This document shows positions 2,474 to 48,100 of a stretch of DNA of 64,000 nucleotides, piece after piece (the first letter of the stretch is position 1; each line of letters starts with the position of its first letter). A program made the position numbers and the translations under genes. The notes below the pieces were generated by a model, which made no database searches, had not been told where the DNA came from, and was given only the letters and a program-made list of their open reading frames with translations. Source of the DNA: Naegleria gruberi (taxonomy: Eukaryota); the NCBI GenBank assembly GCA_000004985.1, contig GG738899.1; one strand, written 5' to 3'.

Positions 2474-4807
2474 TTACCATAATCCAAAGCTAAAGACGTC
2501 TCGGTTGAGTATAGATGATGAGGTGTTTTGATTTGAATCCTCTGGGGTGGGCGTGTCTTCATCTACTTTGTGGATTCCAGAGAGAAAATCTTTTACACTA
2601 TGAAGTGAGAGTGTTCTCCTGTTATTGTTTGATTTTTCTGATTCACTTGAGGAAGTGCTGCTATCTTGTTGATGTTGTGAACGGTGGTCATCTTTGGAAT
2701 CTTTGGTTCCAAGAAATATTCCTTTCACTGATTTACCAACACTCAGTAATTGTCTATGTATCTCAATAACTGGATGGATTTTTACACTCCTCTGTTGGCC
2801 AAATATATCTTTTTTGAGGTTTAGTAGAGTTCTCACAAGTTTTTCAGAGTCAGGTCTATCTTTAGGTTCTAGAGAGAGCATTGATATGATGAGATTGGCA
2901 AATCCTTCATGATATTTGCTACACCGTTTTCTGATCAGCCCGTGGAATTGTTGTTGATCTTTCATGGCCATAATGTATGGTGAAAAATTGAGGATTTCAC
3001 ATCCAACAAGCTCTAGAAAAACTATTCCCATTGACCATATATCAGAGGAGTAAATATAATTCATGAATAAAGATGTAGGGGCTATTGGTTCCTTAGAATC
3101 CAACTCTGTTATATCTTTAACACCAATATGACACTCTGGTGATTGATATTTGATAGTACCTGCACTTGAGATTGTATCATTCAAATTTTTAGAGGTTAAT
3201 GATCTCAAATTATAAATTAAACCAAAATCTCCAATTTTACATTCTTTGAATTTTGAACTGAGTAAAATGTTCTTTGGTTTTATATCTCTGTGAAGAAGCC
3301 CATTCAAATGAAGATGATTTAGACCGGCAGACATTTGAATCATCAGAGACAGCAGGTGAGCCTCTTGAATTGTTTGGCCTTGATCTTTGTGTCCATTAAT
3401 GAATTGTTCTAAATCTCCATCATCCATGTATTCCATTACTAGACAGAGTGTAAATAGTGATGAGAATTCATTGTCTGATTTTGAAAAGTAAATGTCCTGT
3501 ATAGATATTAATTGAGGATAGCTGATTTTTCTGATTGGCCAAAATTCAACGAGGGCATCATTTGCATTATTGATATCGTCACAATTAATTTTCTTAATAC
3601 CAACTGTTACTCTATCGGATTTTCTTACAGCTTTGTACACTTTACCAAAAGATCCTCTTCCGACTTCTTCCAGAATTTCATAATGACTCTCTTCATACAG
3701 ATTTTCACTATTATTTTGTGGTAGATCAAAATTGCTGTCACATATGCTTGTCAGTTTTTCAGATGATGGTTTCTTCTTAAGGCCGGATAATATGAACGAG
3801 TCATCAAATGAAATTGTTTCGTAATCATGTAAGCTCTCTAAAGAATTATTTGGTGATATGTGGTGCTTCACACCCTCGAATTTTTGTGGTAATATTAATT
3901 TCATTCCTATTGTAACAACTCCTGTTTTATCTTTACCTCGTTTCAGAGATAGTTCAATCATATCCACAGATCTAGATCTAAAATCCATCAATCTGTTAAT
4001 ATCATACACAGCCTCTCCAATAAAGTTAACATGAGGTTTACATTTCATTATATAGTTGTGAAGCATTTCTGAAGTGGCAGAAATGTTATCCAATTGCATA
4101 GCAATTTGTGGTAGAATTTTCTTCGACTCCAACGATGAAGAATGTTCAAATACATAATGTGATTCATTACTATTATTACTAGCTGAATTGCAAATGGTCA
4201 TAACTTGTTGATATTCTGCCTCTGATAATTGGATTGGTAATATAACCTTCTCTCCTTTCCATTTGAATGTAAATCCATCAGAGAGAGGTGATTTTCTAAT
4301 TCGAGATGAATGGGCTACTACTTGTTTATATTCATCACCTAATAATTCTTCTTGTTCATCACTTCTTTTTACACTAAATGTTAAACAAGTATCAAATATC
4401 GAAGCACTAAAGTATTGAGTAAAACTCAAATCACTTGCAAGTGTTACAGTTCCAATACTAAATTCAATTCCAATATGATTCGGAGGTAAAATTAATGGTT
4501 GTTTGTTATTTTCCTCGATATCTTCTTCATCAGAATGATTATATTTATCACTAATTAAATTATCATTTTCCGTAATTAAATTATGTAACATTTCACTAAA
4601 TGATTTCCTTCTCGGATGTTCTTGTTGCTGTACTTTGAGAGTATTGTTATTATTATTCTGTACATTTGATTTTTCCTTGTTTCGATCATTACTATTATTA
4701 TTATTACTATCGGAAGATGATTGTGGTGGTGTAGTCGTTGGTGTTGGTGAGGAGGTTGATGAACTCTTGTCCAATCCCATAAACGACCTGAATCCACCAA
4801 AGAACAT
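2474..4807 (-). CDS. Ser/Thr protein kinase (777 aa) with a large N-terminal non-kinase region and a C-terminal kinase domain.
   Basis: Kinase subdomain motifs are present: GRGSFGKVYKAVRK...VGIKKI (Gly-loop and VAIK-like Lys), HRDIKPKNILL (catalytic loop), DFGL (DFG) and SDIWSMGIVFLEL (subdomain IX). Single uninterrupted ORF. Confidence 0.8.
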   Translation of the reverse strand: MFFGGFRSFMGLDKSSSTSSPTPTTTPPQSSSDSNNNNSNDRNKEKSNVQNNNNNTLKVQQQEHPRRKSFSEMLHNLITENDNLISDKYNHSDEEDIEENNKQPLILPPNHIGIEFSIGTVTLASDLSFTQYFSASIFDTCLTFSVKRSDEQEELLGDEYKQVVAHSSRIRKSPLSDGFTFKWKGEKVILPIQLSEAEYQQVMTICNSASNNSNESHYVFEHSSSLESKKILPQIAMQLDNISATSEMLHNYIMKCKPHVNFIGEAVYDINRLMDFRSRSVDMIELSLKRGKDKTGVVTIGMKLILPQKFEGVKHHISPNNSLESLHDYETISFDDSFILSGLKKKPSSEKLTSICDSNFDLPQNNSENLYEESHYEILEEVGRGSFGKVYKAVRKSDRVTVGIKKINCDDINNANDALVEFWPIRKISYPQLISIQDIYFSKSDNEFSSLFTLCLVMEYMDDGDLEQFINGHKDQGQTIQEAHLLSLMIQMSAGLNHLHLNGLLHRDIKPKNILLSSKFKECKIGDFGLIYNLRSLTSKNLNDTISSAGTIKYQSPECHIGVKDITELDSKEPIAPTSLFMNYIYSSDIWSMGIVFLELVGCEILNFSPYIMAMKDQQQFHGLIRKRCSKYHEGFANLIISMLSLEPKDRPDSEKLVRTLLNLKKDIFGQQRSVKIHPVIEIHRQLLSVGKSVKGIFLGTKDSKDDHRSQHQQDSSTSSSESEKSNNNRRTLSLHSVKDFLSGIHKVDEDTPTPEDSNQNTSSSILNRDVFSFGLW

Positions 4808-8653: not shown

Positions 8654-10275
8654 TTACTCATTATGATTAGATGCACCATCTAGAAGAGATTCATTAATAC
8701 GATTGTTTTGAGATTCCACATTTCTCTTATTGGAAGAATCACTCAATTTTCCACATCTGAAACAAGATTGATAACAAATTTTCAATTCATCCAAACTAAA
8801 TTCCATATATAACAAGCCACTGACCACAATAAATAAAATAAAATTCAGAATGGCACCAATAATTGGTTCAGTAAATTCAGCTCCAGTGTTCTGAGATTCT
8901 TGAACCAGATAAATTATTACCATTAATATAAAACATGGAAATACAATGGAAACAAATATCAAAAAGTTGGCATACTAAAATTGTTAATTATTTCCATATA
9001 TATATTTAACTCACCCCAGTGTTCCAAATATTAATATCTGATACTTTTTTCATAGCTCTAGCGATAATTAATCCAACAATTAAAAATACTTTTTCATTAT
9101 TGTTATGATTTACTTTCTAAAAAAGTATTACTTACTAAATATAGATAATAACAACCAAAGTGCAATAAATATTTTGACATATTGAAAAGCAAATGACTGA
9201 ATAATAGCTATTGATACAATCCCTAATACTGAGAATATAATTGGTATAGCATAAATCAATATACTATAAATGGTTTTTCTCTTATTGACAACGCCAAAAC
9301 TATTCGTGACCAATTTCCTAACCAGGAGAATAAAGCCAAAAATAAGAAAATATGAAAATAATCTGACACTATTACCACAATGGTTCTCTGGTAATTCTCA
9401 AATCTAAGGATGTATCTATACAAATAAGTTCCAAATTCACTACAAATCCTAAAAGTAATATATAAAATAGTAATAATTGGATATAAGGATCTTAATTTGA
9501 CACACTGAATGAGTTTAGGAATGAAAACTAAGAAGAATGCAATAATTAATTGACCAAATGTCAATATTATTGAAATGATACCAACTGCAAAAGTGAGATA
9601 TTGCTTATTTGGAGAATAAAAACATTTTTCAAAGAATGCACTGTCATTAATAGAGCAAGCACAAAAGTATGAAAATGGATATCTCAAAATTCCATTCACA
9701 TTTGATTGATTAAATAAAAAAGGAAATCCAAAAATACTGTCTCCACAATAAAGCAATCTTGTTGGAAAATAATTAATCATCTCATGTAACATAACCAAAT
9801 TAGGATTACATTCTTCTCGTTTCACCATTTTCCTATAAATTAAACTGTTATTTCCACAATATTGACATGCATTAATCCATTCCTCTGCTGAACTATCCAA
9901 TCTTCTCATCATATCAAGAGTAGCAGCATTTGCATTACACAACACTTCAAAGCAAGTTTGATTTAAAGTTTTTTCTAATTTTCCAATTTTTTCACAAATA
10001 TTAATTCTCGGAGATTGATAAATTAATTTGGTTGATTCGGAATCAATGGTTGGTCCTTTGGTTATTACTAGAGAGACATTGCTGGTGTATGAAACATCGA
10101 GACAATTGAAATTATTTGGAAGAAACTGATCTAAATCATATTTCGGAAAGAGAAACATTCGCCAAACGTTTTCAATTGTGCAGTTGGAGAAGAATACTTT
10201 CTCTGAACCATGGACTGTCAGATGGCAGGAAATGAGAAGGAATGCCGAGAGGATAAAGAGATACCTTGTTGACAT
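8654..10275 (-). CDS. Seven-transmembrane receptor-like membrane protein with a signal peptide and a Cys-rich ~190-aa N-terminal ectodomain. Proposed exons 9311..10275, 9136..9263, 9015..9088, 8654..8974, with introns of 47, 47 and 40 bp.
   Basis: MSTRYLFILSAFLLISCHLTVHG (signal), many Cys in the ectodomain, then 7 hydrophobic helices spread across ORFs 9256..10275, 9128..9313 and 8654..8962. Those ORFs lie in different frames and can only be joined by short GT..AG introns. The first donor (GTCACG) is weak, so the exon model is tentative. Confidence 0.45.
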
Positions 10276-10413: not shown

Positions 10414-13203
10414 TTAATTTTTGATATCCATTTCAGAGAACATGTCTATTTCATCCCAATTTGAGTTTTCGACATTTTCTTCCTCTTGCAGTATCTTTGA
10501 AAGATTACTTTCTTTTGGAGGTTCTTCTTCTTGTGGTGCAGTTGGCAGAGTTGGTTCTGGTTTCACTTGACTCTGTGTAATCTTTGATTTTGGAGGTTTT
10601 CTTTTACCACCTCTTGATGATGGGCTAGCTGTTGTTTTTGTTGTTCCAGCAGTTGGTTTTGGTGAAGTTTGGACAGTTTTAGGTGTGCTTTCTTGTTCCT
10701 TTGAGAAATCTTTGAAGAAATCTTCTTCCTCATCGTGTGGTGTGTATGAATCATCTTCCATACTATCAAATCCAAGACCCTTCTTCTTCTTTTGGGAGGA
10801 GCTGGCTGAACTTGGAGATGGTTGAGGGTTGTTTTGCACAATTGTTGTTTCTTGTGGAATAGCTTTAACTGTTTCAACAACTTGAACAGACTTTTCTTCA
10901 TCATCTGACCAATTCTTCCATTCCTCGTCTTCGCTGTGGGCTGGACTAGAATGGGATTGAGTCTGTTGAGCTACAGCTTCAATAGACTTGTTGGATGCTG
11001 TTTTGATTAATTGTAGTCTTGATTGTTGTTGAGATTCTACTTGAGCTTCAGGTGTCTTCTCTTGTGGTTGAGGATTGAATTCTTTCTTGACAACTGCTGG
11101 GGAAGACGGTGGAGTATTTTCAGTAGAACGTCCACCTTCATCTATTGAAGATTTTGATTGTTGATCACTTTCAGAGAATTGGATTACATGTTTTGGAGAT
11201 TGACCAGAGAAGATTTCAACTCGAACAAGTTCTTTTTGAGATTGTGGAGGGAAGAATGGTGTAACATTTGTAATACCATCATTTGCTGAGGTAATCATTC
11301 CTAAATTACATCGGGAAAGATCAGATTCTGACAAGTACTCTAATGCAACTTTCATTACTTGGGTAGCTTTTGATCTGACTTGTTCCTTTTCATGGAGAGT
11401 TAATGGAAGTACAGGTTTCATTACATAGGTCATGAGTTCTCTTGGATCAAATCTCGACATGTGAATTAAAATTACATTCAAAGCGTGTACTTTGAGTTCT
11501 GAAATATCCTTATCAAACAAGTTAGAGTGTAAAGCTGTTAAAATTATTCCCTTATTGGCTCCAGGTAAATTCCATAATTCCAAAAGGCATAAAAGAGCAT
11601 GAGATCTCAAAGCAATAACACTTTCAATGGCTTTTTCCTTATCAACTTCTTGGCCAATTCTAGGGAATGAGTTTTGTACAGCATAATGATGAAGGGAAGG
11701 AAGGAATTGATTATTAATAATTTCTATTCCAGTGGTGGATTGAGTAGATTGATCAAGTTTGGAAAGGTACTTGGAGAAGGCTACACAGGCATTCATAGTG
11801 AACATGACAAGTTCATTACTAGAGTCTTTGATGGCCTTCATTATTTCTGGAATAACTTCTGAAATGGCTACACTAGGAGGAATTTGATTTTGATAATATT
11901 CCAAGGTTTGAAGTATCCTAATTCTTAAACTATAATTCTTACTAATATAACATTTACGAATAAAAGTAAGAATGTGCTCATCGTAATCCTTGCCAGATAA
12001 GATACCATCAATTCCTCTCTTGGATGACTCTTTAGCTGAGAACAAGTGAGCCAAAAAGGTACCTGAGGCAGGCTCTGTAACGAACGGAAGAGTTGTCATT
12101 CTTGGCAAAATTCTCTTTTTAAAAAGTGAAAGAGACAATTTGTTAACTTGGCTCTTGAGTTCCTTAAAGAAAGATTCCTTTTCAGATGCCTTTTTCAATC
12201 TCATATCATCAAAGAATAGCATAATGCTACAGAGTGGATCTTGTTCAAAAAGTTTCAGTTTTAAAAAGCTGGCAAAGGTAGCTCTTGATTGAGGTTCACT
12301 TTCAAGTGCCTTTGACATCCAAAATTTGATGGCTGGTAATTTCAAAAAAGATTGATAGTTAACTTCGTTAGGAACGTTATTCTTCTTGCAGCTTTCTTCA
12401 ATTTCTGCGAATATCTTGGATACTAATTTTTCAAAAGCATATACATCTCTACATGTACTTGTATATTTTTGGAATTTCTTCATTCCTTCTTCTGGAGTAA
12501 TAGTTTCAGAGTATCTAATTTCCTTAGTATTTTCGTAAAAATCCTTATCAATATTACTAAATTCCATAGCAAATTGGAAATCACCAAGCATCCACCTCAT
12601 TTGTTTATCTTTTGTCACATAAACAGAATCCAAATGAACATTATTAAATGTAATTTGGCATTGATCGTTCAAAAAATTGAGAGCACTCTGAAAAAGATGT
12701 GAGATGACTATTCAAACTAAAATACTCACAGATATTTGAAGTAATCCCAACAAAATTTCCGACATTTCCAATGATGGCAAAACAGATCTGAGGGGTACAA
12801 CAGGCTCTGTAGCTATATAAAAGTGTGAATTATTCAACTCAATGTCATCAACATATTTCAAAATTGATGGATGTCTAAGAGTTTTTAAAAACTTCATTCC
12901 TCTTCTAGCACACTCAATAATTGTTTTTGCAGGTTCCTCATCCAATGGTGAAATTTTAGTTTTTGGCTTTTCCGCAGTTTGATTATCATTTTCATTCTTT
13001 TGTTGTCTCAAAATCTTTGGTAAATCTTTAGCTTGTTTATCCGTTAATTCAAATTCAAAAACAGAAACATTTCTATTATCACTTTGAACATTCTTCTGAA
13101 AAACACCATCATATAATTTCCAAAATTTAAATCTCTTATCCGTATCAACCAATGGAACTGGTTGGAGGGATGAAAACTTTTGTGAGACGTTAGAATTTCC
13201 CAT
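10414..13203 (-). CDS. SCYL1: SCY1-like pseudokinase (N-terminal kinase-like protein, SCYL1-type). Exon 1 12730..13203 (ATG 13203), intron 12688..12729 (GTGAGT...CAG, 42 bp), exon 2 10414..12687; about 915 aa.
   Basis: The N-terminal exon ...VSVFEFEL...GMKFLKTLRHPSILKYVDDIELNNSHFYIATEPVVPL...SEILLGLLQIS joins SALNFLNDQCQITFNNVHLDSVYVTKDKQMRWMLGDFQFAMEF. This matches the SCYL1 pattern (RLKTLRHPNILAYIDGLE...VTEAVTPL...[33 protein letters not shown]). It is followed by a HEAT-like region and an acidic S/T/P-rich tail. The splice is phase-consistent with both ORF-track frames. Confidence 0.75.
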
Positions 13204-18138: not shown

Positions 18139-21100
18139 ATGCCAGAAGTAATTACCAGCAGCACTGTTGGTAGAACAGCTTTCGGTCCCAACCTTTCCTT
18201 GTTGAAGGTAAGTTATTACTCATTTACATCTCGCAGTAATTTTTTTTTGACTTTCTAATAACAAACAAACTAAGAACTTCAAAATGAACATGTTGAAAAT
18301 AATATATAGGGTGGTACAATCTCTCAAACAATTGTTGGTTTAATAGTTTCTGCTTCTGTTGTTGCCTCTCTCGTTGTTACCATTGTAATGATTAGTGTTG
18401 GTGCAGGTGTTCAAAATCCAACATTGAAACCAGACTATTATGAACTTTACAAAAAGACACCATCAAAACTCTATCCTCTTCTCAATGATATTGATCCAAG
18501 AGGTGGTAATTTGACAATTTTAAATGTTACTCAACCATTACATGGTAAAGCTGTGTTATCTTCTGCTGGCATGGTTATTTATACAAGTATTGGTTCTTAT
18601 GCTGGTAATGATACTTTCGAATATTCGGTTACTAATGGATGGACAACTGCGACTGAACATGTTTATCTTAGTATTTTGAATCGTGCTCCAGAAGTAGTTG
18701 ACATGACATATACTGTTAATAAGAATTCAAAGAAAAATTCATTTGATTTATTTGGATATGAAAGTGAAATGGGTGCTAAAATTAAGGATATTGACGGTGA
18801 TGATTTATCTATTACTGACATTATTCTAGTTTCTCCTAATGTTGGTAGTTTAATCTCATTCGATCAAAATTACTTGTACTATACTCCTGCTTATGGTTTT
18901 AATAATATTGAATTACTTAACTATACAATCTCAGATGGTTATGCCAATGTTTCAGGTGTCATTACTATTAATGTTGCCAATGATAAACCAACAGCTGAAC
19001 CTGACACTTATACCATTACAAAGAATGCTTTGGGTACTTTTAATATTCTAGATAATGATTTTGATATTAATGGTGATAACATTTCAATTACCACTGCTGG
19101 TTTAGGTTCATCTGGTGTTGTTTTAATTTCCTCTGATAATTCAAATATCGAATATATTCCAAAGCCATTTGTAGCTCCATATACTGATGCTTTTGAATAT
19201 GAAATCACTGATGGAGCTTTGACAAGTTCTAGTTATGTTTTTGTAAAGATTGTCAATTCTCCTCCAACTGTTTCTGATAAGGTTTTCAATGTTGCAAAGA
19301 ATTCAAAGAATAATCTTTTAGATTTGACATTCTCTGATCCAGATGTACTTGATACTGTTACCTTGACAGCTGTTAGTAAGCTTGCTCGTGGTAATTCCTC
19401 ATTGTCTGTTACTAGCTCAATGGCATCTGTTTATTATCCAACAGGTGACTTTTTACAAGTTAAGAAGAATTTGTACTCTCTTGTTTATACACCAGATCAA
19501 GGTGTTATTTATACTGATTCCTTTAAGGTCAAAGTTAGTGATGGTGTGGATGTTGCTTATGCCACCATTACTATTAATGTAGTTCCTTCTCCTCCTGTTC
19601 CTGTTAATGATACTGTCACTTGTCAAAAGAATGGACAAGTCTCTCTTGATGTTATCAGTAATGATTATAGTGCTTCTGGTGATGTTTTGAAATTGAATTT
19701 TGCATCATCTACTTCCAATTTTGGTGGTAAACTTGTTAAGATTGATGATAATAATGTAAAATATGAGCCAGCTAAAGGATTCCTTGGTCAAGATGAAGCT
19801 CAATACATTGTTATTAACACTAACACTGATGGATCTAGTGAAGGTACTTTCAATAGAGAGGGATATGTTCTTGTTAATGTTGTGAACTCACCTCCAGTTG
19901 CTGTTCCATTAACTTTGACAGTTTCAAAGGGTTTGACAAGTGCTCTTAATTTATTAAGAGATAGTTATGATCCAAATGGTGATTCTATTAATTATAATAG
20001 TATTGCTAAGAGTACTTATGGAGTTTCATTGTCCTTCACTTCTGGTAATGCAAATGTTAATTATGCTGCCTTGTCATCTGTCTACGTTGATTATGTTGAC
20101 TTTACTGTTGTTGATATTGATGGAGCTATTTCACAAGTTGCTACAGCTACCATTAACGTTGTTAATGATGCTCCTGTTCCAGTTGATGATACTGCTGCTG
20201 TTTCTTGGAATAGAAGTATTGTCATTGATGTTTTGGCAAATGACAAGGATGTTAATGGTGATTCTCTAAGTGTTAAGAGTGTTAGTTATACTTCTAATAA
20301 TGGTGCAACTGTTACTGTTCATCAAGGTGGTAAAACTGTTCTCTACACTCCAAAGGATGGATTTGTAGGAAATGATACCTTCTCCTATGTTTGTTTTGAT
20401 GGAATTGATTCATCTGTCACTTCTGGATTGGTGACAGTTGTTGTTAGTAATACTGCTCCATCTACTTCTCCAGTTACTGTTAGTGTTCATTGGAGAGATT
20501 CTTCAGTTATTATTCCAGTATTGACCTATGCCAGTGATATTGATGGTGATTCTCTTCATGTTGAATCTTTCACACAAGGATCAAAGGGATCTGTTTCACG
20601 TGTTACACTTACTGATGGTACAGATGGTTTGCAATTTACTACTTCTGGGTCAAATAACTATGTTGGAAGTGATTCTTTTACTTTTGTTGTTAGTGATTAT
20701 GGTAAATCAAGTGTTGGAAGTGTCAACATTCAAATTACTGACACTGCTCCTGTTGCCAATGCTGATTCATTCTCAATGCATTGGAGATCAACTGATAATG
20801 TTTTATCTGTTCTTGCTAATGATGTCGATGCTAATATTGATCCAATTACTGTCAAATCATTTACTAAACCACAAGGTTTTACTGGAACACTTGTCAATGT
20901 TAATTCTCATTTGACATTTACACCAAGTGCTTCAAGTGTTGGTACTCAAACATTTACTTACACTGCTACTGATGGTCCATCAACAAGTAATGATGCTACT
21001 GTCACATTAACTGTTACCAATAAGGATATTCCACAAGATAAGACAATTTCCAAGACTGTTCACTGGTCAACTCAATCAACTGGTACTACTATTACCATTT

Positions 21101-24100
21101 TCTCAAGTGCCAATCCAGTTGATACTGATGGTGATTCATTGAGTATTTCTTCTACTCTTGTTTCTCCTTCAAGTGGTTCAATTACAATTTCCAATTCTGA
21201 TATTCCAAGTGTTGTTTACAAACAAAATACTGGATTCCTTGGAACTGATACTTTCAAGATTCAAATCTCTGATGGTGCTGCTACTGCTATTGTTACCATT
21301 TCTGTTACTGTTTATGATAATGCTCCATTGTCTAATGATATTTCTGAAAATAGACATTTTACTGAAGTTAGTAATGGATATACTAAGAATGCAATTTCAT
21401 TCTTCAATGTTACTGATATCGATTCTCAAGATAGTGTCACTGTTAAGGATGCTACTGTTGGATCTTGTGGTTCTGTCTCAAAGACTTCTTCAACTGTCAC
21501 ATTCACAAGTAATAAGGGAAGTGTTGGTGTTTGTACTGTAACTATCACATTTACTGATGGTCTATTGAATTCTGTATCCAAGTGGAATGTCAATGTTCAA
21601 AATCAAGATCCTTCTGCCGCACCAATTAGCACTACCGTTCACTGGAGTAAGAGTCAAGCTATTATTGACATTATGTCAACTTTGTCTGATGCTGATAATG
21701 ATGCCTTGTCTTATTCAGTTTCATCTTATGATTCCACATTCGGTAGCCCATCTATCAATTCTGATAAGGCTCTCGTATGGACTCTTCCACAAACACCAAA
21801 ATTAGGAACAACTCAAATTGTAATTTCATTCACAGATGGATGGGTCAGTAAGACTGCTTCTTATCCATTGATTGTTCAAAACGTTGCACCAACTGCAGTT
21901 GCAAAGACAATTTCATCAAAGTGGTCTGCATGTCTTTCTGGTATTACTATTGATATTTTGAGTGAATGCTCAGATAATGACGGAGATAGTTTGTCATTTG
22001 ACAGTACTACGCCAATTGTTACTGCTCCAGCTCAAGGAAGTGCTTCAATTGTTTCTTCAAAGGTTTATTACAAACAATCAACTGCTTCTGTTGGTTCTTA
22101 TTCCATTACTTACAAGATTACTGATGGTATTCAAACTTCATCAAACTCTATTACTGTCAATTGTGAAGATAATGCTCCTGTTGCTAATGCTGATTCAATT
22201 ACTGTTAATTGGAATACCTCTGATGTCGATATTACTATTTTGTCTAACGATATTGATTCAGATAATGATATTCTTTCTGTCACTAATCTTTCAGCTGTCA
22301 GTGAAGGTTCTTTAACTAATTTAGGTACTTTTGTTAAATATACTTTGAAGAAACCACCAACCCTTTCTGACAAGACATTCACCTATAAGGCATTCGACGG
22401 AGCTCTCTATTCCTCTGCTGCAACTGTCACTGTCAAAGTTGTCAATGCCAACAAGCCACAAATTAGTGATCAAAGTACAACTGCTCACTGGAGAACTGTC
22501 AAGGATGGTGTTTCATACACTGTCTATGATACTCTTACCGATGCTGATGGTGATTATTATTCACTTTCATTTGGTAGTGGTTCAAGTGCTTATTGTTCAC
22601 TTATTGACCTTTCGAATGGTATTAAGGGTGTTAAATATACTAGAAATGCATTCGATTCCACTGATTCTTGTAAAGTAGTTCTCTCTGATGGATTCAGTAC
22701 AAGTGCTGCCACATTAACAACCAACTCTTACAATAATGTTCCAGTTGCTGCCAACTTTACTTTAGATTATTCTGGTGGTAATATTCAATATGGTATTTCA
22801 ATTGATGTTTTGTCATCTGCTACAGATGCTGATATTCAAGATGTTCCATTCCTTTCCATTTTAAGTGTTGGAAATTCCAAATTATATGGTAGTGAAGCTG
22901 CAAATATTGTAAATGGACAAGTTTTCTATTTCCCAGATCAATCATTAGTTAAAGCATTGGGTACTGATACTGTTGCTTATACTATTAGTGATGGTTTATC
23001 AACATCTATTGGTTATCTCACTATTAACATCAAGTCAACTTCTCCATCCAGTACTGAACAATATTACAATGTTCATTTTAGATATTCAAGTGTTGGTTAT
23101 GTTTTCACACCATTGACAAAGATTGCAGATGCCACTAAACTTGATACTACTGTTGTTCAAGGAAGTGAACCAAATCAAGGTGGTTCAGTTGTTGTTTCTA
23201 GTGTTGATGAAAAGACAGTTACTTACAAACCATCTGGTTCCTATTTAGGTAATGAAATTTTCAAGTTAAAGTATTATACTGCTAGTGGTAGTAGTGATAT
23301 TACTTTTACAATGAATATTTATGATACTGCTCCAATTGCTCAATCACTTTCTGGTTCAGTTCATTTTGGTAAATCAACAACATTCAATTTAACTGCTTCA
23401 ACTTCAGATGCTGATCCATTGGATGTCAATAATTTGTCATTCTCAATTACTGGTCAACCATCTCAAGGATCTTTGAGTGTTTCATCAAATATTGCCACTT
23501 ATACTGCATCATCAACTGTTGGAACCTATTCTGGTATTTACAGAGTTTCAGATTCTATGAAATCTTCTACTGGTTCTATTACTTTGACTGTAACTAATAC
23601 TGTTCCTACTTCACAAACTAAAACCATTTCAGTTCCTTGGAGAACTTTCAAGGCAGGTTTTAATATTGATGTCTTGAATTTAGCACCAGCTGATTTTGAT
23701 AATGATGGAGATGAGTTGAGTTTGGTTTCAATTGCTCTTCAACCATCAGTTGGTTCAGTAACTAAATTGGATAGTAAGAGAGTTAGTATTGTTGGTTCAG
23801 GAAACTTTGTTGGTTCACTTACATTCAAATACATTGTTAGTGATGGTGCCTCAAATGGTCAAGTCACAACCACAGTTAACTTGAATGTTTACAACACTGC
23901 TCCAGTTGGTATTCCAGATAAGCTCTCTACCCACTGGAATGTTGCCTCAAAGACATTGAATGTTATTGCCAATGACACTGATGCTGAATCAGATCCTTTA
24001 ACTGTCACATCCGTTTATGGATCTTTAGCTTCAACTGCTCCAACTTTCACTTCTGATAGTATTGTCTATTATCCAAAGAATGCTCCATCAACAGATACAG

Positions 24101-27100
24101 TTTATTATACAGTTTCTGATAATGTTGCTACATCTATTTCATATGTCACTGTTACTGTAACTAACACTGCTCCAACTACAACTTCTCAATCATTTGTTGG
24201 TTCTTGGTCTTCAGCTAAGAATGGTTTAACATTTGACGTTGTTTCTACTTCTTCTGATGCTAATGGAGATTCATTGTCATTGCAATCATGCTCTTCATCA
24301 GTTACTTCCTCTCAAGGTAATGTCACTTGTTCTGGAAATGTCAAATTCACTCCAGCCAGTGGTTTCGTTGGTAGTATCAACCCAATCAGTTATATTATCA
24401 CTGATGGTAGAGACACTGTCACTGGTACTGTTTCCATTACAATTTTGAATAATGCTCCTACTGCTAATACTACAAATACTTTCAGATATCATTGGAGAAG
24501 TGTTTTGAGTAATACTGTTATTGATCTTTCTTCATATCTCAAAGATGCTGATGGTGATGCTGTTACTTTGACAGCTGTCACAAAGACACTTGTTGGTGTT
24601 GCTTCTCTTGGATCAGGAAATACCATTAACTATAAGGTTAATAGTGCTTACACTGGTACTGATTCAGTCACTGTCTCATTCACTGATGGATGGTCAACTT
24701 CAAGTGCCACTTTCAATATTGTAATTTACAATAACGCTCCTGTTGCTCAAAATATCATTACTTCAACTCACTTGGCAACTTTGAACATTCCTGTGATTGG
24801 ATCTGGTTCAAATCAACCAACAGATGCTGATGGAAGTGTTGATCTTAATAATTTAGTCATTTCTTCATTCTCAAATCCATCAGTTGGAAGTGTTTCTTTG
24901 AGTGGTGATAAGAAATCATTCACATTCACTAACGTTGCTGGAAATGTTGCCACTCAAACATTTACCTATGTCGTTTCAGATGGAAAGGATACTTCTGCAT
25001 CAAAGACTGTTACAATTTCCATTACAAACAATGCACCATCTGCAACTCCAATTACCATTTCTAAACATTGGGCTACAGTACAAGGTGGATTAGATATTAA
25101 TTTATTGTCTGTTGTAACTGATTCTGATGGTGATTCTCTTTCAATTACTTCATTCACTCAAACAAATAATGGAGCTGTTTCTTCAATCAATTCAACATCT
25201 GTCAAGTATATTCCAACACCATTGACTGCTGGTTTCACAACTTCATTCACCTATTCAGTTTATGATGGTTATACTACAATTTCAAATACTGTTACAATTT
25301 CAATTACCAATACACCACCTGTTGCAGTTGATGATACCATCACTGTTCACTGGACCAATAATACATTGTATTTGAAACCAGTTGTGAATGATTATGATTT
25401 GGATAATGATTACATTTATATTAACAAATTGTATCCATCTCAATTTATGAATGCCTATGCATCAATGGGTAATTATATCATCATTTCAAAGGGAACAACT
25501 ATTGTTAATAACTTTGCAAGTGTTGTCGTTCCTGGAAGCGTTGCAACTGCTGGATTTGTTAATCAAGTTCTTCAACCAACTGGCTCACTAAATGTTAATA
25601 ATGCTGCTCAACTTGCCATTGTTAATGCTGCTACTAATTTGTATCAATCATTGAGTTTATATACTTGTACTGCTTCATTAGATCAATCATTCCCATCTTC
25701 AAATGTTTTGAGTTTCTCACCTGGTGTCTATTGTTTCCCACAAGGTTTATCTGGTTCTGGTACCATCTTGTTGAGTGGTTCAGGTCTTTACATTTTCAGT
25801 ATTTCCACTAATTTGAATGCTAACTTCCAATGGTCATTCACAAATGGAGCTAGTGCTTCAAATGTTTATTGGTTGGTTGGTGCTGCTGGTATTTCAGGAA
25901 CTTTCTATGGTCATGTTTTGAGTAATGGTCAACTCAATTTCAATAATGTTGTTCAAAATGGTGTTATTATGAGTTTAGGATCAAATTCAATGAGTTTGAA
26001 TAGTGTTACTTTTGGTTCCGTTGTTATTCCAACTGGACAAACTGCCTTGGAATTACAATCTGACAAGTTGACTGTCTATTATAAGAATACTTTCATTAAT
26101 GGACCAGCAACTGACTCATTCCAATACACAATTACTGATCAAATTGCCACTTCTAATGTTGCTATTGTCAAATTGGTCTTTACCAATACTGCTCCAGTTG
26201 CCACTTCATTCTCAGCTGGTAAAGTTACATGGAAAAATACCTTAACAACTGCAAGTGTTGTTTCCAAGTATTGTTCTGATGCTGATAAGGATTCATTGAG
26301 TTTATTCGGAGTTACTCAAGGTAAATACGGAACTACTACAGTTACCGATTCTACAAGTGGTACCATTGTTTATACACCAAGTAGTTCAATTTCCTATACC
26401 TCTGTTGATTCCAATGGAGCTAGTTATGTAACTGATCAAATTACTTTTGGATGTTATGATGGAGCTCAAGTTACATATAACACATTCTCTGTTGTCGTTT
26501 ACAATACAGCTCCAAAGAGTGCTTCTAAATCACTTAGTGTTCAAAGAGATACTTCAAATCCAACTGTTACATTGAATGATTTGTTGGTTGGTGCTACAGA
26601 TGCTGAGGGTGATTCAATTTCTGTATCAAGTGTTTCAATGATTTCACAAAATACTGGTGCTTCTGTCTTGTTATCATCCAATACTGCTAAACTCACTTAC
26701 ATAACTTCATATTTAGGTTCAATTGTCTTTTCATTCACTTTAACTGATGGTCAATTGAGTTCAACTTATAATTATAATGTCACTATTACTGGTGCTCCAT
26801 TCTATTGTGTTGATTATACCATTAGTACTACCAAAGATTCCTCTGCTGTCACTTTCGAAACTGATTTAAAGTCTAAATTGTCAAGCTATTGTGTTAATGA
26901 TGTTTGTACTTTGGCTCTTGCTTCAACTGCATCACTCAATGGAGTTGGTTCAATTGCTGCCAATGGTAATAACTTGTTGACATATACTCAAAATTCCAAG
27001 TCATCATCAAATGGAGAATCCTATTCCACTTACTCATATTCTAATAGGGCAGGTCAAAGCGCAATTTGTAAGATTATCATTAATCAACCAAATAATGCAC

Positions 27101-29412
27101 CAACTGTCTATGATTATACTTATAGTTACTCAATTAGTAGAGCTTCTAATGATTATGTTACATTTGATTATGTTAGTTTATCATCCTCTGATGATCCAGA
27201 TGCTTCTGACTCAATTGTATTGAGTAGTATTTCAAGTGTTGGTACATGTACAACTAGTTCTATCAGTAGTTTGTCAATTACTAGTGATAACCAAATCAAA
27301 TTCTTGAGAAATCCATCATTCATTGGAAGTTGTTCATTCTCTTTGGTTGTTTCTGATAGTGATTTGAGAAATCCAATCTCTAAAACTGCAAAAATTACAA
27401 TCAATGCCATTTCTTCTCCACCAGTTGCTGTCAATGATGCTGTTTCTACAACCTATAACACATATATTGATATTCCAGTTTCCACATTACTTGGAAACGA
27501 TTATGATTCACTTGGTGGTACATTCTCATTCACTGGTATTAATTGCCCAACAGGTGATTCAACTTATTGTACAGCAGGCACTCCAACTATTCTCAATCCA
27601 TCTGATCCTGCAAATACAAGAATCATCAGAGTTCAACCAATTAAGGGATCTTGTAATTCTCAAAAATTCGTTTATGGTATCAAATCTGATTCTGATTCAA
27701 CAACTGCCACAGCTATTGTTACAGTTTCTTATACCAAATGTACATGTTCTTTGAATATGGATATTGTATTTGTTTTGGATGGTAGTTCATCTATTGATGC
27801 AGGAAATTGGATTAACATGCAAAACTTTGCATCCAATTTAACTGTTGGATTTGGTTCAAACATTTCACCAACTGCCACCAAGATTGGTATCATTCAATTC
27901 TCTACAACAACTGTAACTCACTTGGATTTGAAAGATGGTACTTCCAAGACAGCTGTTCTTAATGCCATTTCATCAGCTGGTCAACTCAAATCCAGTACCA
28001 ACTCAATTTTAGGTATTAACAATGCTGTTTCAATGGTTTTAAGTCAAGGTAGAAAGGATATCACTAGAAAACTCTTAATTCACATTACAGATGGTATGTC
28101 CAATTTACCTTGTGGTATGGGAGCTTGTCGTGCCATGTATGGTAGTGATAAGTCATTATATGGATCTGTTCCTAATTATTGTAAGTCACCTCGTTTCCCA
28201 GGTACTGATGCAACAATATGCTCATGGAATGAACCACTCAGTAGATGTAATCCTTGTTCTGATGCTACTCTTAGATCAACTGATTTGAATTCTTGGACAG
28301 TTGGAGGTGCTTCAAATCCAGAAAAATCAACTTATGGATCTATTTGGAATTGGAGACAATTAGTTGTAGGTATTGGTGATGGTTTGAGTTCTGGGTATGG
28401 ACAACTTCAAATTCAAAAGATGAATTACGATCCAAACAATTTAATTGTTGTCGATTGGTCTGATTTGAGCTCTGTTTATCAAACTGTTATTGATAATAGT
28501 TGTAATCTTGTCGATTCCACTCAAACCAACGTTCTTGTTCCACTTTCAAGTTCTGGATATTCTATTCAATATCTTGGAAAGACATTGTCCAAATCAAGTT
28601 ACCTTAATTATGAAGCAACCATTTCAACATTCACTTATCGTGTTAGTGTCTCTTCATCAGCACCTGCTTTACAAAGATTTACCTTAGGATTACAACCTGG
28701 TTACAATCAAGATAACTTTGTAAATTATGATCCATACTTCCCAGTTTTCATTGGTCAAGACACTACCACTAATTTGAATGGTTTCACTTTCTTATCACTT
28801 CCAAATTCATATACAATTGCAGCTGGTTCATCAGATACCTATACATTGAGTATTGCTGGTGATATTCCTGAAGGTGTTATTACTTATGGTATGTCGGGTG
28901 GTTCACAATACACACAAGGAACTGTTAAGGGACCAAGTGGAGTGATCAACTCAACCACAGTTGCTCTTCCACCAAATATTAATTACGGTGATGATTCAAG
29001 TTATAGAACTACCTATTGTTCCTCAACCAAATGTTATTTCTTTACCAAGATGAATTATGCCTATCGTATTGAAGCAATGAGTAAGATTTGTAAATATTGG
29101 TCTGCCAATGCAACACTAGTTCAAATTCAATCATCCACTGAAAAGACCACACTCATCAATAATGTTTTACCTTACGATGAGAGTGCTACCTTCTTCTTAG
29201 GTACTAAGGATTCCGATATTGCAGTTGGATCAACAACTACATGGCAAGATGGTACATCCATGTCCTCCTATACAAATTATCAAAGCAAACAACCTGGTTC
29301 CTACACTATTATTTATGCTTCATATAATGCTAATTCTCCAACTGGTACTTGGTGGAAGGGAGGTAGTTATGATACCAACACTCAATATTTACTTTGTCAA
29401 TTTAAGAAATAA
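18139..29412 (+). CDS. Giant type-II membrane adhesin-like protein (~3,720 aa). Exon 1 18139..18207, intron 18208..18309, exon 2 18310..29412. Architecture: TM anchor, about 28 tandem cadherin-like Ca-binding repeats, a DUF3494 (ice-binding-like) beta-helix, vWA domain, C-type lectin domain.
   Basis: MPEVITSSTVGRTAFGPNLSLLK|GGTISQTIVGLIVSASVVASLVVTIVMISVG is the TM segment. It is followed by ~95-100-aa repeats, each ending V-x-N-x-A-P-(V/T)-A (VVNDAPVPVDD, VSNTAPSTSP, VYNTAPVGIPD, ITNNAPSATP...) and containing D-x-D-G-D-S-L. The DUF3494-like stretch is at ~25440..26070; vWA has DIVFVLDGSSSID (MIDAS); the CTLD has KCYFF...WQDG...QP...WWKGG...CQF. The single 11.1-kb ORF is anchored to ORF 18388..29412. 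Confidence 0.8.
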
Positions 29413-29576: not shown

Positions 29577-30215
29577 ATGATTAAGCTTGCCATTGCTCTC
29601 ATTCTCCTTGTTGGATGGATCACCTTGTTGGTCCAATCGAAGGATGTTAAATTTTGCATGCCTCCTATTGCTTCCTTCACACAAACCACGAAACATGTTT
29701 CATATTATGGAACGGCCAGAAATTCCTCCTACAAGCTCAAAATTCAATACGATAGTAATTTGAATAAGCAACGCACAGATACTTATGAACAAGATGGCAC
29801 CTTGATCTCATCTGTAATTTCCTTACTAGATGCCTCTAATAATACCATTCTCTATTCCATAAAGAATAATGAATGTTCCTGTATTAATGAAGGTCAGACC
29901 GATGGAGCTATTTGGGCTCAATGTATAACTCAACCAGTTTTAGCTAAGGAAACTATTGCTGAACAACCAGCTCTCAAAGTTGGATACAACACTACAAATT
30001 CTCAATGGACTAATGATGAATATTATTGGATTGTTCCAGCTAGAGAACCAGGTTATTGGTGGTTCCTTTCACAAATTGAATATGTTATTGATAGGAATAA
30101 TGTTGAATTGGGAAGTAGTACTTTTTCTGATCATACTCCTAATGTGAATTATCTTTCACTTGTTGTTCCAACTAATTGTCCTTCAATGGGTGATTGTCCA
30201 TCTCCAAGAAGATGA
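29577..30215 (+). CDS. Small secreted Cys-containing protein (212 aa) with a signal peptide; possibly ependymin-related (low confidence).
   Basis: MIKLAIALILLVGWITLLVQS is a signal peptide. Conserved-looking Cys positions (FCMPP..., ECSCINEG, AQCITQ, TNCPSMGDCPSP), N-glycosylation sites, and no TM segment. Confidence 0.5.
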   Translation: MIKLAIALILLVGWITLLVQSKDVKFCMPPIASFTQTTKHVSYYGTARNSSYKLKIQYDSNLNKQRTDTYEQDGTLISSVISLLDASNNTILYSIKNNECSCINEGQTDGAIWAQCITQPVLAKETIAEQPALKVGYNTTNSQWTNDEYYWIVPAREPGYWWFLSQIEYVIDRNNVELGSSTFSDHTPNVNYLSLVVPTNCPSMGDCPSPRR

Positions 30216-43547: not shown

Positions 43548-43598
43548 NNNNNNNNNNNNNNNNNNNNNNNNNNNNNNNNNNNNNNNNNNNNNNNNNNN
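43548..43598. other. Assembly gap (51 N).
   Basis: Run of n. Confidence 0.99.
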
Positions 43599-45163: not shown

Positions 45164-48100
45164 NNNNNNNNNNNNNNNNNNNNNNNNNNNNNNNNNNNNN
45201 NNNNNNNNNNNNNNNNNNNNNNNNNNNNNNNNNNNNNNNNNNNNNNNNNNNNNNNNNNNNNNNNNNNNNNNNNNNNNNNNNNNNNNNNNNNNNNNNNNNN
45301 NNNNNNNNNNNNNNNNNNNNNNNNNNNNNNNNNNNNNNNNNNNNNNNNNNNNNNNNNNNNNNNNNNNNNNNNNNNNNNNNNNNNNNNNNNNNNNNNNNNN
45401 NNNNNNNNNNNNNNNNNNNNNNNNNNNNNNNNNNNNNNNNNNNNNNNNNNNNNNNNNNNNNNNNNNNNNNNNNNNNNNNNNNNNNNNNNNNNNNNNNNNN
45501 NNNNNNNNNNNNNNNNNNNNNNNNNNNNNNNNNNNNNNNNNNNNNNNNNNNNNNNNNNNNNNNNNNNNNNNNNNNNNNNNNNNNNNNNNNNNNNNNNNNN
45601 NNNNNNNNNNNNNNNNNNNNNNNNNNNNNNNNNNNNNNNNNNNNNNNNNNNNNNNNNNNNNNNNNNNNNNNNNNNNNNNNNNNNNNNNNNNNNNNNNNNN
45701 NNNNNNNNNNNNNNNNNNNNNNNNNNNNNNNNNNNNNNNNNNNNNNNNNNNNNNNNNNNNNNNNNNNNNNNNNNNNNNNNNNNNNNNNNNNNNNNNNNNN
45801 NNNNNNNNNNNNNNNNNNNNNNNNNNNNNNNNNNNNNNNNNNNNNNNNNNNNNNNNNNNNNNNNNNNNNNNNNNNNNNNNNNNNNNNNNNNNNNNNNNNN
45901 NNNNNNNNNNNNNNNNNNNNNNNNNNNNNNNNNNNNNNNNNNNNNNNNNNNNNNNNNNNNNNNNNNNNNNNNNNNNNNNNNNNNNNNNNNNNNNNNNNNN
46001 NNNNNNNNNNNNNNNNNNNNNNNNNNNNNNNNNNNNNNNNNNNNNNNNNNNNNNNNNNNNNNNNNNNNNNNNNNNNNNNNNNNNNNNNNNNNNNNNNNNN
46101 NNNNNNNNNNNNNNNNNNNNNNNNNNNNNNNNNNNNNNNNNNNNNNNNNNNNNNNNNNNNNNNNNNNNNNNNNNNNNNNNNNNNNNNNNNNNNNNNNNNN
46201 NNNNNNNNNNNNNNNNNNNNNNNNNNNNNNNNNNNNNNNNNNNNNNNNNNNNNNNNNNNNNNNNNNNNNNNNNNNNNNNNNNNNNNNNNNNNNNNNNNNN
46301 NNNNNNNNNNNNNNNNNNNNNNNNNNNNNNNNNNNNNNNNNNNNNNNNNNNNNNNNNNNNNNNNNNNNNNNNNNNNNNNNNNNNNNNNNNNNNNNNNNNN
46401 NNNNNNNNNNNNNNNNNNNNNNNNNNNNNNNNNNNNNNNNNNNNNNNNNNNNNNNNNNNNNNNNNNNNNNNNNNNNNNNNNNNNNNNNNNNNNNNNNNNN
46501 NNNNNNNNNNNNNNNNNNNNNNNNNNNNNNNNNNNNNNNNNNNNNNNNNNNNNNNNNNNNNNNNNNNNNNNNNNNNNNNNNNNNNNNNNNNNNNNNNNNN
46601 NNNNNNNNNNNNNNNNNNNNNNNNNNNNNNNNNNNNNNNNNNNNNNNNNNNNNNNNNNNNNNNNNNNNNNNNNNNNNNNNNNNNNNNNNNNNNNNNNNNN
46701 NNNNNNNNNNNNNNNNNNNNNNNNNNNNNNNNNNNNNNNNNNNNNNNNNNNNNNNNNNNNNNNNNNNNNNNNNNNNNNNNNNNNNNNNNNNNNNNNNNNN
46801 NNNNNNNNNNNNNNNNNNNNNNNNNNNNNNNNNNNNNNNNNNNNNNNNNNNNNNNNNNNNNNNNNNNNNNNNNNNNNNNNNNNNNNNNNNNNNNNNNNNN
46901 NNNNNNNNNNNNNNNNNNNNNNNNNNNNNNNNNNNNNNNNNNNNNNNNNNNNNNNNNNNNNNNNNNNNNNNNNNNNNNNNNNNNNNNNNNNNNNNNNNNN
47001 NNNNNNNNNNNNNNNNNNNNNNNNNNNNNNNNNNNNNNNNNNNNNNNNNNNNNNNNNNNNNNNNNNNNNNNNNNNNNNNNNNNNNNNNNNNNNNNNNNNN
47101 NNNNNNNNNNNNNNNNNNNNNNNNNNNNNNNNNNNNNNNNNNNNNNNNNNNNNNNNNNNNNNNNNNNNNNNNNNNNNNNNNNNNNNNNNNNNNNNNNNNN
47201 NNNNNNNNNNNNNNNNNNNNNNNNNNNNNNNNNNNNNNNNNNNNNNNNNNNNNNNNNNNNNNNNNNNNNNNNNNNNNNNNNNNNNNNNNNNNNNNNNNNN
47301 NNNNNNNNNNNNNNNNNNNNNNNNNNNNNNNNNNNNNNNNNNNNNNNNNNNNNNNNNNNNNNNNNNNNNNNNNNNNNNNNNNNNNNNNNNNNNNNNNNNN
47401 NNNNNNNNNNNNNNNNNNNNNNNNNNNNNNNNNNNNNNNNNNNNNNNNNNNNNNNNNNNNNNNNNNNNNNNNNNNNNNNNNNNNNNNNNNNNNNNNNNNN
47501 NNNNNNNNNNNNNNNNNNNNNNNNNNNNNNNNNNNNNNNNNNNNNNNNNNNNNNNNNNNNNNNNNNNNNNNNNNNNNNNNNNNNNNNNNNNNNNNNNNNN
47601 NNNNNNNNNNNNNNNNNNNNNNNNNNNNNNNNNNNNNNNNNNNNNNNNNNNNNNNNNNNNNNNNNNNNNNNNNNNNNNNNNNNNNNNNNNNNNNNNNNNN
47701 NNNNNNNNNNNNNNNNNNNNNNNNNNNNNNNNNNNNNNNNNNNNNNNNNNNNNNNNNNNNNNNNNNNNNNNNNNNNNNNNNNNNNNNNNNNNNNNNNNNN
47801 NNNNNNNNNNNNNNNNNNNNNNNNNNNNNNNNNNNNNNNNNNNNNNNNNNNNNNNNNNNNNNNNNNNNNNNNNNNNNNNNNNNNNNNNNNNNNNNNNNNN
47901 NNNNNNNNNNNNNNNNNNNNNNNNNNNNNNNNNNNNNNNNNNNNNNNNNNNNNNNNNNNNNNNNNNNNNNNNNNNNNNNNNNNNNNNNNNNNNNNNNNNN
48001 NNNNNNNNNNNNNNNNNNNNNNNNNNNNNNNNNNNNNNNNNNNNNNNNNNNNNNNNNNNNNNNNNNNNNNNNNNNNNNNNNNNNNNNNNNNNNNNNNNNN

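Follow-up and report, generated by a model that had tools for sequence, protein, structure and literature searches.

A giant, probably surface-exposed protein of Naegleria gruberi with a bacterial-type repeat stalk and a DUF3494 domain nested in one of its repeats

The gene NAEGRDRAFT_72752 of the amoeba Naegleria gruberi occupies positions 18139-29412 on the plus strand of a 64,000-nucleotide stretch of contig GG738899.1 (assembly GCA_000004985.1; the whole stretch is called the window here). It encodes 3,723 amino acids (aa), and the explanation that we consider probable for it as a whole is a giant single-pass surface protein that acts as a fibrillar adhesin or receptor. The protein is built wholly from known modules, and what sets it apart is a DUF3494 domain nested inside one repeat of a long stalk, together with the fact that the stalk repeats are not homogenised and have 1:1 orthologues in a related species. 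Its best reading, from sequence comparison, is that of a eukaryotic, type II-anchored and lineage-restricted counterpart of the fibrillar adhesins of bacteria. The attachment of Naegleria to surfaces, prey and host matrix is barely known in molecular terms, and this protein offers a tangible candidate of unusual size, with relatives in several related organisms.

The gene consists of a 69-nt first exon, a 102-nt intron and an 11.1-kb second exon (Table 1). From position 18310 to the stop codon at 29410-29412 a single frame of 3,701 codons runs without a stop, an event with a chance expectation of about 1e-119 (about 0.071 stops per codon at about 35% G+C). The upstream exon is needed because the hydrophobic helix begins 5' of the first ATG within this open reading frame (ORF), at 18388; the ATG of exon 1 joins the large exon in frame across a GTAAGT...TAG intron. 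In the orthologue, the Logan contig L002, exon 1 matches (MPEQITFSSTTVGRSTLGVNLSLL), and a GTAAGT intron stands at the corresponding point, followed by KGGTITQTIVG. Over aa 1-658, including the splice of intron 1, our model agrees residue for residue with the public one, XP_002672240.1 (D2VUR0, 'predicted protein', 2,816 aa). A first-pass annotation of the window, made from its letters alone, had proposed a 69-nt exon and a giant exon coding for about 3,720 aa, and both the public model and L002 support its intron. Exact database look-up returned no identical entry for the 3,723-aa model, because the deposited model differs, and none for the product of the ORF from ATG 18388. The gene is already deposited but unstudied, rather than undetected: a literature search found no paper on NAEGRDRAFT_72752 or on DUF3494 in Naegleria, and a Naegleria pangenome study merely counts VWA and C-type lectin genes (PMC9928731). 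The earlier remark that this was not described as a family agrees with the result of that search; the gene itself was already on deposit.

Most of the protein is a stalk of tandem-95 repeats. A Pfam scan of the whole protein finds Big_9 in 23 stretches (E 1e-187, 609.6 bits, cutoff 23.6), Cadherin_4 in 18 (417.7 bits) and Cadherin_5 in 16 (362.9 bits), and the first two thirds of the protein give 255.6 and 177.8 bits with the NCBIfam model tand_rpt_95 (NF012211; cutoff 90). Classical Cadherin (PF00028) gave no match in the Pfam scan, in which just the bacterial-type Cadherin_3/4/5 and Big_9 families were matched. A hidden Markov model (HMM) built from the protein's own repeats yields 30 matches, or about 29 repeats: 24 full ones, one that is split, two at aa 2645-2846 and two partly aberrant ones up to aa ~3165. 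Their consensus, inv.NtAPva..dt.svhW.t...tidvLsnd.DaDGDsLSv...V.Ytp..sfvGtdtFtY.vsDG, contains two strongly enriched motifs, D.[DN]GD (12 observed, 0.16 expected from shuffling) and N.[AP]P (16 observed, 1.06 expected). The first-pass annotation had counted about 28 tandem repeats of 95-100 aa, had picked out both motifs as N-x-A-P and D-x-D-G-D and had assigned the repeats to the bacterial cadherin-like type; all of this is borne out, with a count nearer 29. Tandem Repeats Finder detects no array in the DNA, the repetition being visible at the protein level only, so that the repeats must be old and diverged; the closest internal repeat-to-repeat matches reach just 26-41% identity. When four repeats were used as query, all named nearest relatives among the matches listed were bacterial or archaeal (29-39% identity); none of the matches listed reached 700 aa, which probably explains the absence of the gene's own database entry. 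The nearest solved structure to a repeat is the chain 36gk_A, an 'RTX protein' (E 1e-4). These comparisons suggest that the repeat type is probably of ancient bacterial origin, and the acidic motifs suggest that the repeats may bind Ca2+ and be stiffened by it.

An exhaustive search of representative sequences, together with contig look-ups, recovered relatives from at least four other assemblies, at 30-60% identity. L002 encodes a conceptual protein of 3,548 aa that is collinear with ours at 49-50% identity and whose gene has three extra short introns; P0173 is a 1,778-aa fragment (45% identity to the window protein, 59% to L002); P0006/L001 is a 753-aa C-terminal piece (60% identity); and P0231 (L003/L004), of 2,238 aa, is only about 30% identical and still shares the N-F-S-L-L-K head, the helix, the repeats and the Cys-insert VWA domain. 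Head and helix are present wherever the N-terminus is covered (L002, P0231) and the VWA domain wherever the C-terminal part is (L002, P0231, P0006). Judging by the 30-60% identity and the common gene structure, our guess is that L001, L002, L003/L004 and P0173 may come from other Naegleria or heterolobosean species. For all 27 repeats that were compared, the best match is the repeat at the corresponding position of L002, with a mean of 85 bits against 43 bits for the best internal match and 48 bits for the best bacterial one. This positional 1:1 orthology means that the complete repeat array predates the split between the two species and has not been homogenised since.

Further observations concern the related loci themselves. 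The extra GT..AG introns of L002, absent from the N. gruberi gene, lie at 2873-3019, 11669-11724 and ~11959-12018, and its upstream neighbours are an enoyl-CoA hydratase and a QRPTase in place of the Band 7 gene of the window, so that local synteny is not conserved. The 60%-identical copy at 2531-4801 of L001, a 5-kb metagenome contig, starts in mid-repeat right beside unrelated genes on the opposite strand, and its lectin-like domain has lost the final conserved Cys. This copy may represent a truncated paralogue or a pseudogene, or may be an artefact of assembly.

Repeat 25 is interrupted by a domain of a quite different kind. Scanned alone, this region matches Pfam Ice_binding (PF11999) with 39.1 bits (cutoff 28.7), a match that is unreported in the whole-protein scan at E<=0.01, and the fungal ice-binding protein of PDB entry 7bwx matches it with E 6e-6. 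An AlphaFold 2 (AF2) model based on 48 sequences has a core with a predicted local distance difference test score (pLDDT) above 90, 167 residues at 90 or more, and a helix at model residues 103-120. All 31 top matches in a Foldseek comparison of this model with the PDB are DUF3494 ice-binding proteins; target-normalised TM-scores are mostly 0.58-0.74 (0.38 for the two-domain 5uyt chains), with root-mean-square deviations of about 3-4.5 Å. As modelled, the region is a right-handed beta-solenoid with a flanking alpha-helix, that is, the DUF3494 fold. The first-pass annotation was right about this beta-helix, which the fold check confirmed, and misplaced it after the repeats: it is nested inside one, and at least four further repeats lie C-terminal to it. 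About 206 aa in N. gruberi stand where L002 and P0173, the two related copies that span repeat 25, have about 12 aa in an intact repeat, both lacking the insertion. By one published account of the canonical DUF3494 fold, the last coil adjoins the first (PMC11645318), so that a domain of this kind can be inserted into a loop; the split beta-sandwich of repeat 25 might reassemble around the solenoid.

The insert appears to come from close to home. A word-indexed search with the DUF3494 region alone found no homologue, and the two best single-domain matches among 1.84 billion representatives are both N. gruberi proteins, NAEGRDRAFT_49989 (P0280, 43% identity) and NAEGRDRAFT_61915 (P0133, 41%). 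In a neighbour-joining tree of 103 DUF3494 domains, computed with capped distances, the three domains of N. gruberi group together as a clade at a bootstrap value of 62/100, or 88/100 when one more sequence is added. From these comparisons we conclude that the domain is a later, lineage-specific nested insertion, made within Naegleria and probably from its own DUF3494 family. Since the insertion is absent from L002 and P0173 and groups with N. gruberi paralogues, the combination of repeats and ice-binding domain was not inherited from a bacterial adhesin, as the first-pass annotation had supposed from the layout. N. gruberi has at least three DUF3494 genes with very different partner domains, and this mesophilic amoeba seems to use the fold repeatedly as an extracellular building block. 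The top-scoring match of the representative search apart from the giant gene's own entry was P0131, a JGI metagenome protein of 1,468 aa with six tandem DUF3494 domains and a DUF7450 repeat.

The C-terminal part of the protein carries candidate ligand-binding modules. The VWA domain is well supported (PF00092, E 5e-20, 72.9 to 76.9 bits, cutoff 23.8; VWA_2, 41.4 bits, cutoff 27) and has the DxSxS motif announced for it earlier; candidates for the distal residues of the metal-ion-dependent adhesion site, a Thr (SSTNS) and an Asp (HITDG), are present as read from the sequence alone. The distant homologue P0231 shares its Cys-rich insert, and the named proteins that match the domain best are VWA proteins of molluscs, with 28-33% identity across 20-24% of the query. 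In the bacterial-looking protein P0140 (2,271 aa), two modules with a VWA domain come after about 11 near-identical tandem-95 repeats; its VWA gave no BLASTP match to the Naegleria VWA domain. The stalk-plus-VWA combination thus also occurs in proteins of prokaryotic type, and a VWA domain alone is no marker of a eukaryotic module, as the first-pass annotation had taken it to be, even if the one in the window matched mollusc proteins and not P0140. For the beta-rich domain that follows, a hint of a Kre9_KNH Ig-like family is seen solely in the orthologue and is weak (E 0.023). The final 147 aa gave no match to Pfam Lectin_C (PF00059) even at E<=10. A two-sequence profile compared with the PDB nevertheless gave 21 matches, every one of them to a C-type lectin-like chain (lowest E 6e-6), with snaclecs and CD209 as the most similar proteins, and the orthologous domains of L002 and P0006 pass the Lectin_C cutoff of 22.6 with 35.6 and 23.7 bits. 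By these profiles the domain, which appears to have outer disulfides only, has a C-type lectin fold and is not a demonstrable lectin. The C-type lectin domain predicted earlier is upheld by the profile and the orthologues, and not by a Lectin_C match of its own sequence or by the canonical Ca2+- and sugar-binding motifs.

At the other end, the only stretch in the 3,723 aa with a 19-residue Kyte-Doolittle mean above 1.6 is aa 26-59, C-terminal to which lie about 3,660 aa of extracellular-type domains. The short head and single transmembrane helix described by the first-pass annotation are recovered as one hydrophobic segment, and a type II orientation, N-terminus inside and C-terminus outside, would fit the arrangement. 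The putative cytoplasmic head, aa 1-25 (18139-18207 plus 18310-18315), contains the motif N-[LF]-S-L-L-K, which is kept even in the 30%-identical family member; the corresponding head lies at 2596-2667 of L002 and 25-120 of L003. Its conservation hints at a sorting or cytoskeleton-linking signal.

Four other explanations were weighed, two of which concern the gene itself. That the gene is bacterial contamination, or a recent and nearly unmodified transfer of a bacterial RTX/ice-binding adhesin, is hardly credible, even though the named nearest relatives of the repeats are all prokaryotic and the bacterial adhesin-like P0140 also joins tandem-95 repeats to VWA domains. Eukaryotic housekeeping genes flank it on both sides (a protein kinase, Band 7, RCC1, a pseudouridine synthase, UFL1 and NSRP1), and three neighbouring ORFs encode exactly the proteins NAEGRDRAFT_72749, 72751 and 72753, which lie on a 331-kb scaffold of N. 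gruberi. Its relative synonymous codon usage correlates with that of the pooled neighbouring genes at r=0.91 (G+C at third codon positions 0.19), its spliceosomal GTAAGT intron is conserved between species, and the L002 orthologue bears further short introns. No RTX repeats were found in the protein; the repeat array is old, all repeats being 1:1 orthologous at just 49% identity; and the DUF3494 domain is a later addition that arose inside Naegleria. To the extent that sequence data allow, this excludes both contamination and a recent transfer, and the native, intron-containing gene with host codon usage that the first-pass annotation described is what we find. It is also very unlikely that the 2,816-aa public model is right and that the protein has about 20 repeats rather than 29. 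XP_002672240.1 treats four repeat-coding stretches as introns, which removes about 907 aa in all. In favour of genuine, or alternatively spliced, introns, each of these segments is GT..AG bounded and has a length divisible by three, so that its removal would preserve the reading frame and, roughly, the repeat register. However, all four are in frame and stop-free (about 1e-17 by chance for the one of 1,620 nt), the repeats that they encode score normally on the repeat HMM, and every one of these has a positional orthologue in L002; the 5' splice sites of the annotated internal introns are weak (GTATTG, GTGTCA, GTATTA) compared with the GTAAGT of intron 1. For these reasons the 3,723-aa model with a single large exon is probably the better one, and the public model about 907 aa too short.

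The other two concern what the protein does. The hydrophobic segment could be a cleavable signal peptide, with the protein secreted or shed as a component of a matrix or cyst wall. The segment does lie at the N-terminus, and VWA, lectin-like and repeat modules are also found in extracellular matrix proteins; the charge around the helix does not decide the matter. A hydrophobic stretch of about 30 residues after a head of about 25, as found here, is however characteristic of signal anchors rather than cleaved signal peptides, and the conservation of the head across species argues that it is retained and functional, so that we regard secretion as unlikely. The case for an ice-adhesion or freeze-protection protein, with the DUF3494 domain as the ice-binding part and the stalk as a tether between the ice and the amoeba or cyst, is that the fold is a genuine DUF3494, that its top structural matches are experimentally characterised ice-binding proteins, that N. 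gruberi has several such genes and that bacterial DUF3494 proteins with Ig-like tethers have been interpreted as ice adhesins (PMC9957290). We nevertheless find this decidedly improbable: the domain is missing from the orthologues, so that ice binding cannot be the function that the family has conserved, its identity to proven ice-binding proteins is just 14-25%, and in the two other N. gruberi genes it stands beside PhoPQ-related, EGF and REJ modules. N. gruberi, moreover, is an amoeba of temperate soil and freshwater. DUF3494 proteins also occur in warm habitats, where they are thought to bind other, various substrates (PMC7783341).

A membrane-anchored adhesin or receptor would then be organised as follows. 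The conserved head of about 25 aa would lie in the cytoplasm, and the signal-anchor helix would tie the N-terminal end to the plasma membrane as in a type II protein. Some 29 tandem-95 beta-sandwich repeats, stiffened by Ca2+, would form a stalk of about 130-150 nm, a length scaled from the Marinomonas adhesin MpIBP, in which about 120 extender domains span ~0.6 µm (PMC5550230). At the distal tip, the VWA domain with its putative metal-ion-dependent adhesion site, the beta-rich domain and the C-type-lectin-like domain would be presented to ligands, and the DUF3494 solenoid, set sideways into a loop of repeat 25 at about three quarters of the stalk's height, would offer N. gruberi an additional lateral binding face. 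The likely function would be adhesion to a substrate, to prey bacteria or to other cells. As for history, the repeat type would have come from bacteria long ago, the complete array would have been present in the common ancestor of at least two species, and the DUF3494 module would have been inserted later from Naegleria's own gene family. The ancient horizontal acquisition suggested by the first-pass annotation may thus hold for the repeat type, and not for the joining of repeats and ice-binding domain, which took place inside Naegleria.

Several points weigh against this picture. The net positive charge is similar on both flanks of the helix and is indecisive for topology, acidic Ca-type motifs occur in just about 12 of the 29 repeats, and a bacterial origin of the repeats is argued solely from taxonomic distribution and named matches. 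The repeat halves that flank the DUF3494 domain have low AF2 confidence, and AF2 modelling of the C-terminal 302 aa with a two-sequence alignment failed (pLDDT 41). In the family's own three-sequence alignment, judged by eye, the lectin-like domain has QPG in place of EPN/QPD and WWK in place of WND; canonical Ca2+ and sugar binding is hence not expected, and the domain may not bind carbohydrate.

A more specific account can be offered only tentatively, as one possibility: that the family is limited to heterolobosean-like amoebae, which turned the stalk of an ancient bacterial fibrillar adhesin into a type II transmembrane protein capped with VWA and lectin-like domains, and that N. gruberi inserted one of its own DUF3494 beta-solenoids into a loop of just one stalk repeat as a new binding site. 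If this were true, the protein would be a natural example of a nested domain insertion into an Ig-like bead, and of a side-mounted substrate- or ice-binding module on a eukaryotic surface fibre. It bears on the way in which binding functions may originate by the insertion of one domain into another, and on the domestication of a bacterial stalk-repeat family in a eukaryote, with introns, a transmembrane anchor and no homogenisation of repeats. It also bears on reference gene models that lose about a quarter of a repetitive protein, and it brings a mesophilic amoeba, with its three or more DUF3494 genes, into the debate on the role of the 'ice-binding' fold outside cold habitats.

Table 1. Features of NAEGRDRAFT_72752 and its predicted product, in window coordinates
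Feature	Position	Strand	Basis
Exon 1 (69 nt), putative short cytoplasmic head MPEVITSSTVGRTAFGPNLSLLK	18139..18207	+	ATG, then GTAAGT; identical in XP_002672240.1; conserved as exon 1 in L002 at 2596-2667
Intron 1, 102 nt, GTAAGT...TAG	18208..18309	+	Equivalent intron position in L002
Exon 2, 11.1 kb of uninterrupted coding sequence including stop	18310..29412	+	Collinear with L002 (49-50% identity) over full length except DUF3494 insert
Single hydrophobic helix, inferred type II signal anchor, aa ~26-55	18316..18405	+	Kyte-Doolittle; conserved in L002 and P0231
Tandem-95 / Big_9 / Cadherin-like repeats 1-24, aa 57-2352	18409..25296	+	Pfam, NCBIfam, repeat HMM; each with 1:1 positional L002 orthologue
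'Intron' of XP_002672240.1, probably coding	20216..20506	+	291 nt, GT..AG, in frame, stop-free, repeat-coding; conserved in L002
'Intron' of XP_002672240.1, probably coding	20720..21367	+	648 nt, in frame, stop-free; repeats with L002 orthologues
'Intron' of XP_002672240.1, probably coding	22163..22324	+	162 nt, in frame, stop-free
'Intron' of XP_002672240.1, probably coding	23271..24890	+	1,620 nt, in frame, stop-free (chance ~1e-17); ~5.5 repeats, each with L002 orthologue
Repeat 25, N-terminal half, aa 2353-2395	25297..25425	+	Repeat-HMM positions 1-54; aligns to intact repeat of L002 and P0173
DUF3494 / Ice_binding-like beta-solenoid inserted in repeat 25, aa ~2396-2601	25426..26043	+	Pfam, AF2, Foldseek; absent from L002 and P0173
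Repeat 25, C-terminal half, aa 2602-2644	26044..26172	+	Repeat-HMM positions 37-89; alignment to L002 and P0173
Repeats 26-27, aa 2645-2846	26173..26778	+	Repeat HMM
Cys-containing segment of ~100 aa, possibly a degenerate repeat, aa 2847-2946	26779..27078	+	No HMM match; conserved in L002 and P0173
Repeats 28-29, aa 2947-3165, partly aberrant; last is a Cys-containing variant	27079..27735	+	Pfam, repeat HMM
VWA domain, aa ~3166-3424; DGSSS (DxSxS) at aa 3180; Cys-rich insert aa ~3289-3341	27736..28512	+	Pfam VWA, VWA_2
Beta-rich domain without family match, aa ~3425-3576	28513..28968	+	No Pfam match; AF2 strands only, pLDDT 40-70
C-type lectin-like domain, aa 3577-3723, without canonical EPN/QPD and WND	28969..29409	+	Two-sequence profile, orthologue Pfam

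Elsewhere in the window, three sizeable ORFs had no Pfam match: 10414-12672 (minus strand, 752 aa), 9256-10275 (minus strand, 339 aa) and 29577-30215 (plus strand, 212 aa), the last of which is NAEGRDRAFT_72753, directly downstream of the giant gene. The assembly has a 14.4-kb run of N at 45164-59552, across which the very long 'ORFs' listed are artefacts, and two 50-nt gaps (43548-43598 and 62690-62739).

Among known systems, the RTX and other fibrillar adhesins of bacteria (MpIBP, tandem-95 NF012211) offer the nearest parallel in layout. By their blueprint, RTX adhesins are anchored at the N-terminus, continue with an extender of beta-sandwiches stiffened by Ca2+ and carry their ligand-binding modules at the C-terminal end (PMC5550230), and the Naegleria protein likewise passes from an anchor through an array of beta-sandwiches with acidic motifs to C-terminal binding modules. 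With bacterial tandem-95 proteins it shares repeats of one sequence family and, in the case of P0140, a VWA domain. The likeness to RTX adhesins is one of layout only, and the first-pass description of a protein built like them goes too far: the RTX nonapeptide motif GG.G.D occurs nowhere in the 3,723 aa, no HemolysinCabind match was found with Pfam, and a type I secretion signal is lacking as well. The Naegleria protein is, by contrast, the product of a eukaryotic nuclear gene with a spliceosomal intron, it is anchored by a 25-aa head and a transmembrane helix instead of a periplasmic retention module, and its repeats are all dissimilar, whereas those of MpIBP and P0140 are near-identical. 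The Marinomonas adhesin singled out by the first-pass annotation is not the apt comparison for the DUF3494 domain either, since the ice-binding region RIV of MpIBP is an RTX beta-roll and DUF3494 is lacking in Marinomonas genomes (PMC5550230). Closer in this respect is SfIBP_1 of Shewanella frigidimarina, one of the DUF3494 proteins tethered by bacterial Ig-like (BIg) domains, which combine DUF3494 with tandem beta-sandwiches and a membrane anchor (PMC9957290); its DUF3494 structure, 6bg8, is among the Foldseek matches of the Naegleria domain. In proteins of this type the DUF3494 domain is terminal and the tether short, with up to ~7 BIg domains (PMC9957290), whereas in Naegleria it is nested in one repeat of a 29-repeat stalk, is lineage-specific and is closest to its own paralogues.

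Metazoan adhesion receptors with VWA or C-type lectin domains (integrin I-domains, collagen VI-like proteins, snaclecs, CD209) resemble the Naegleria protein in having a DxSxS VWA domain and a C-type lectin-like domain. They differ in that no integrin, collagen or classical cadherin architecture was found in the Naegleria protein, in that its lectin-like domain is without EPN/QPD and WND, and in that its VWA domain has a family-specific Cys-rich insert; compared with classical cadherins, the anchor is N-terminal and PF00028 repeats are not matched. As to the inserted domain itself, the two N. gruberi paralogues set it among other partners, PhoPQ_related with Ice_binding in NAEGRDRAFT_49989 and EGF with Ice_binding and REJ/PKD in NAEGRDRAFT_61915, neither having tandem-95 repeats, and both share with the nested domain the motifs GVYCFPQGL, STNLNAN and FTNGA.

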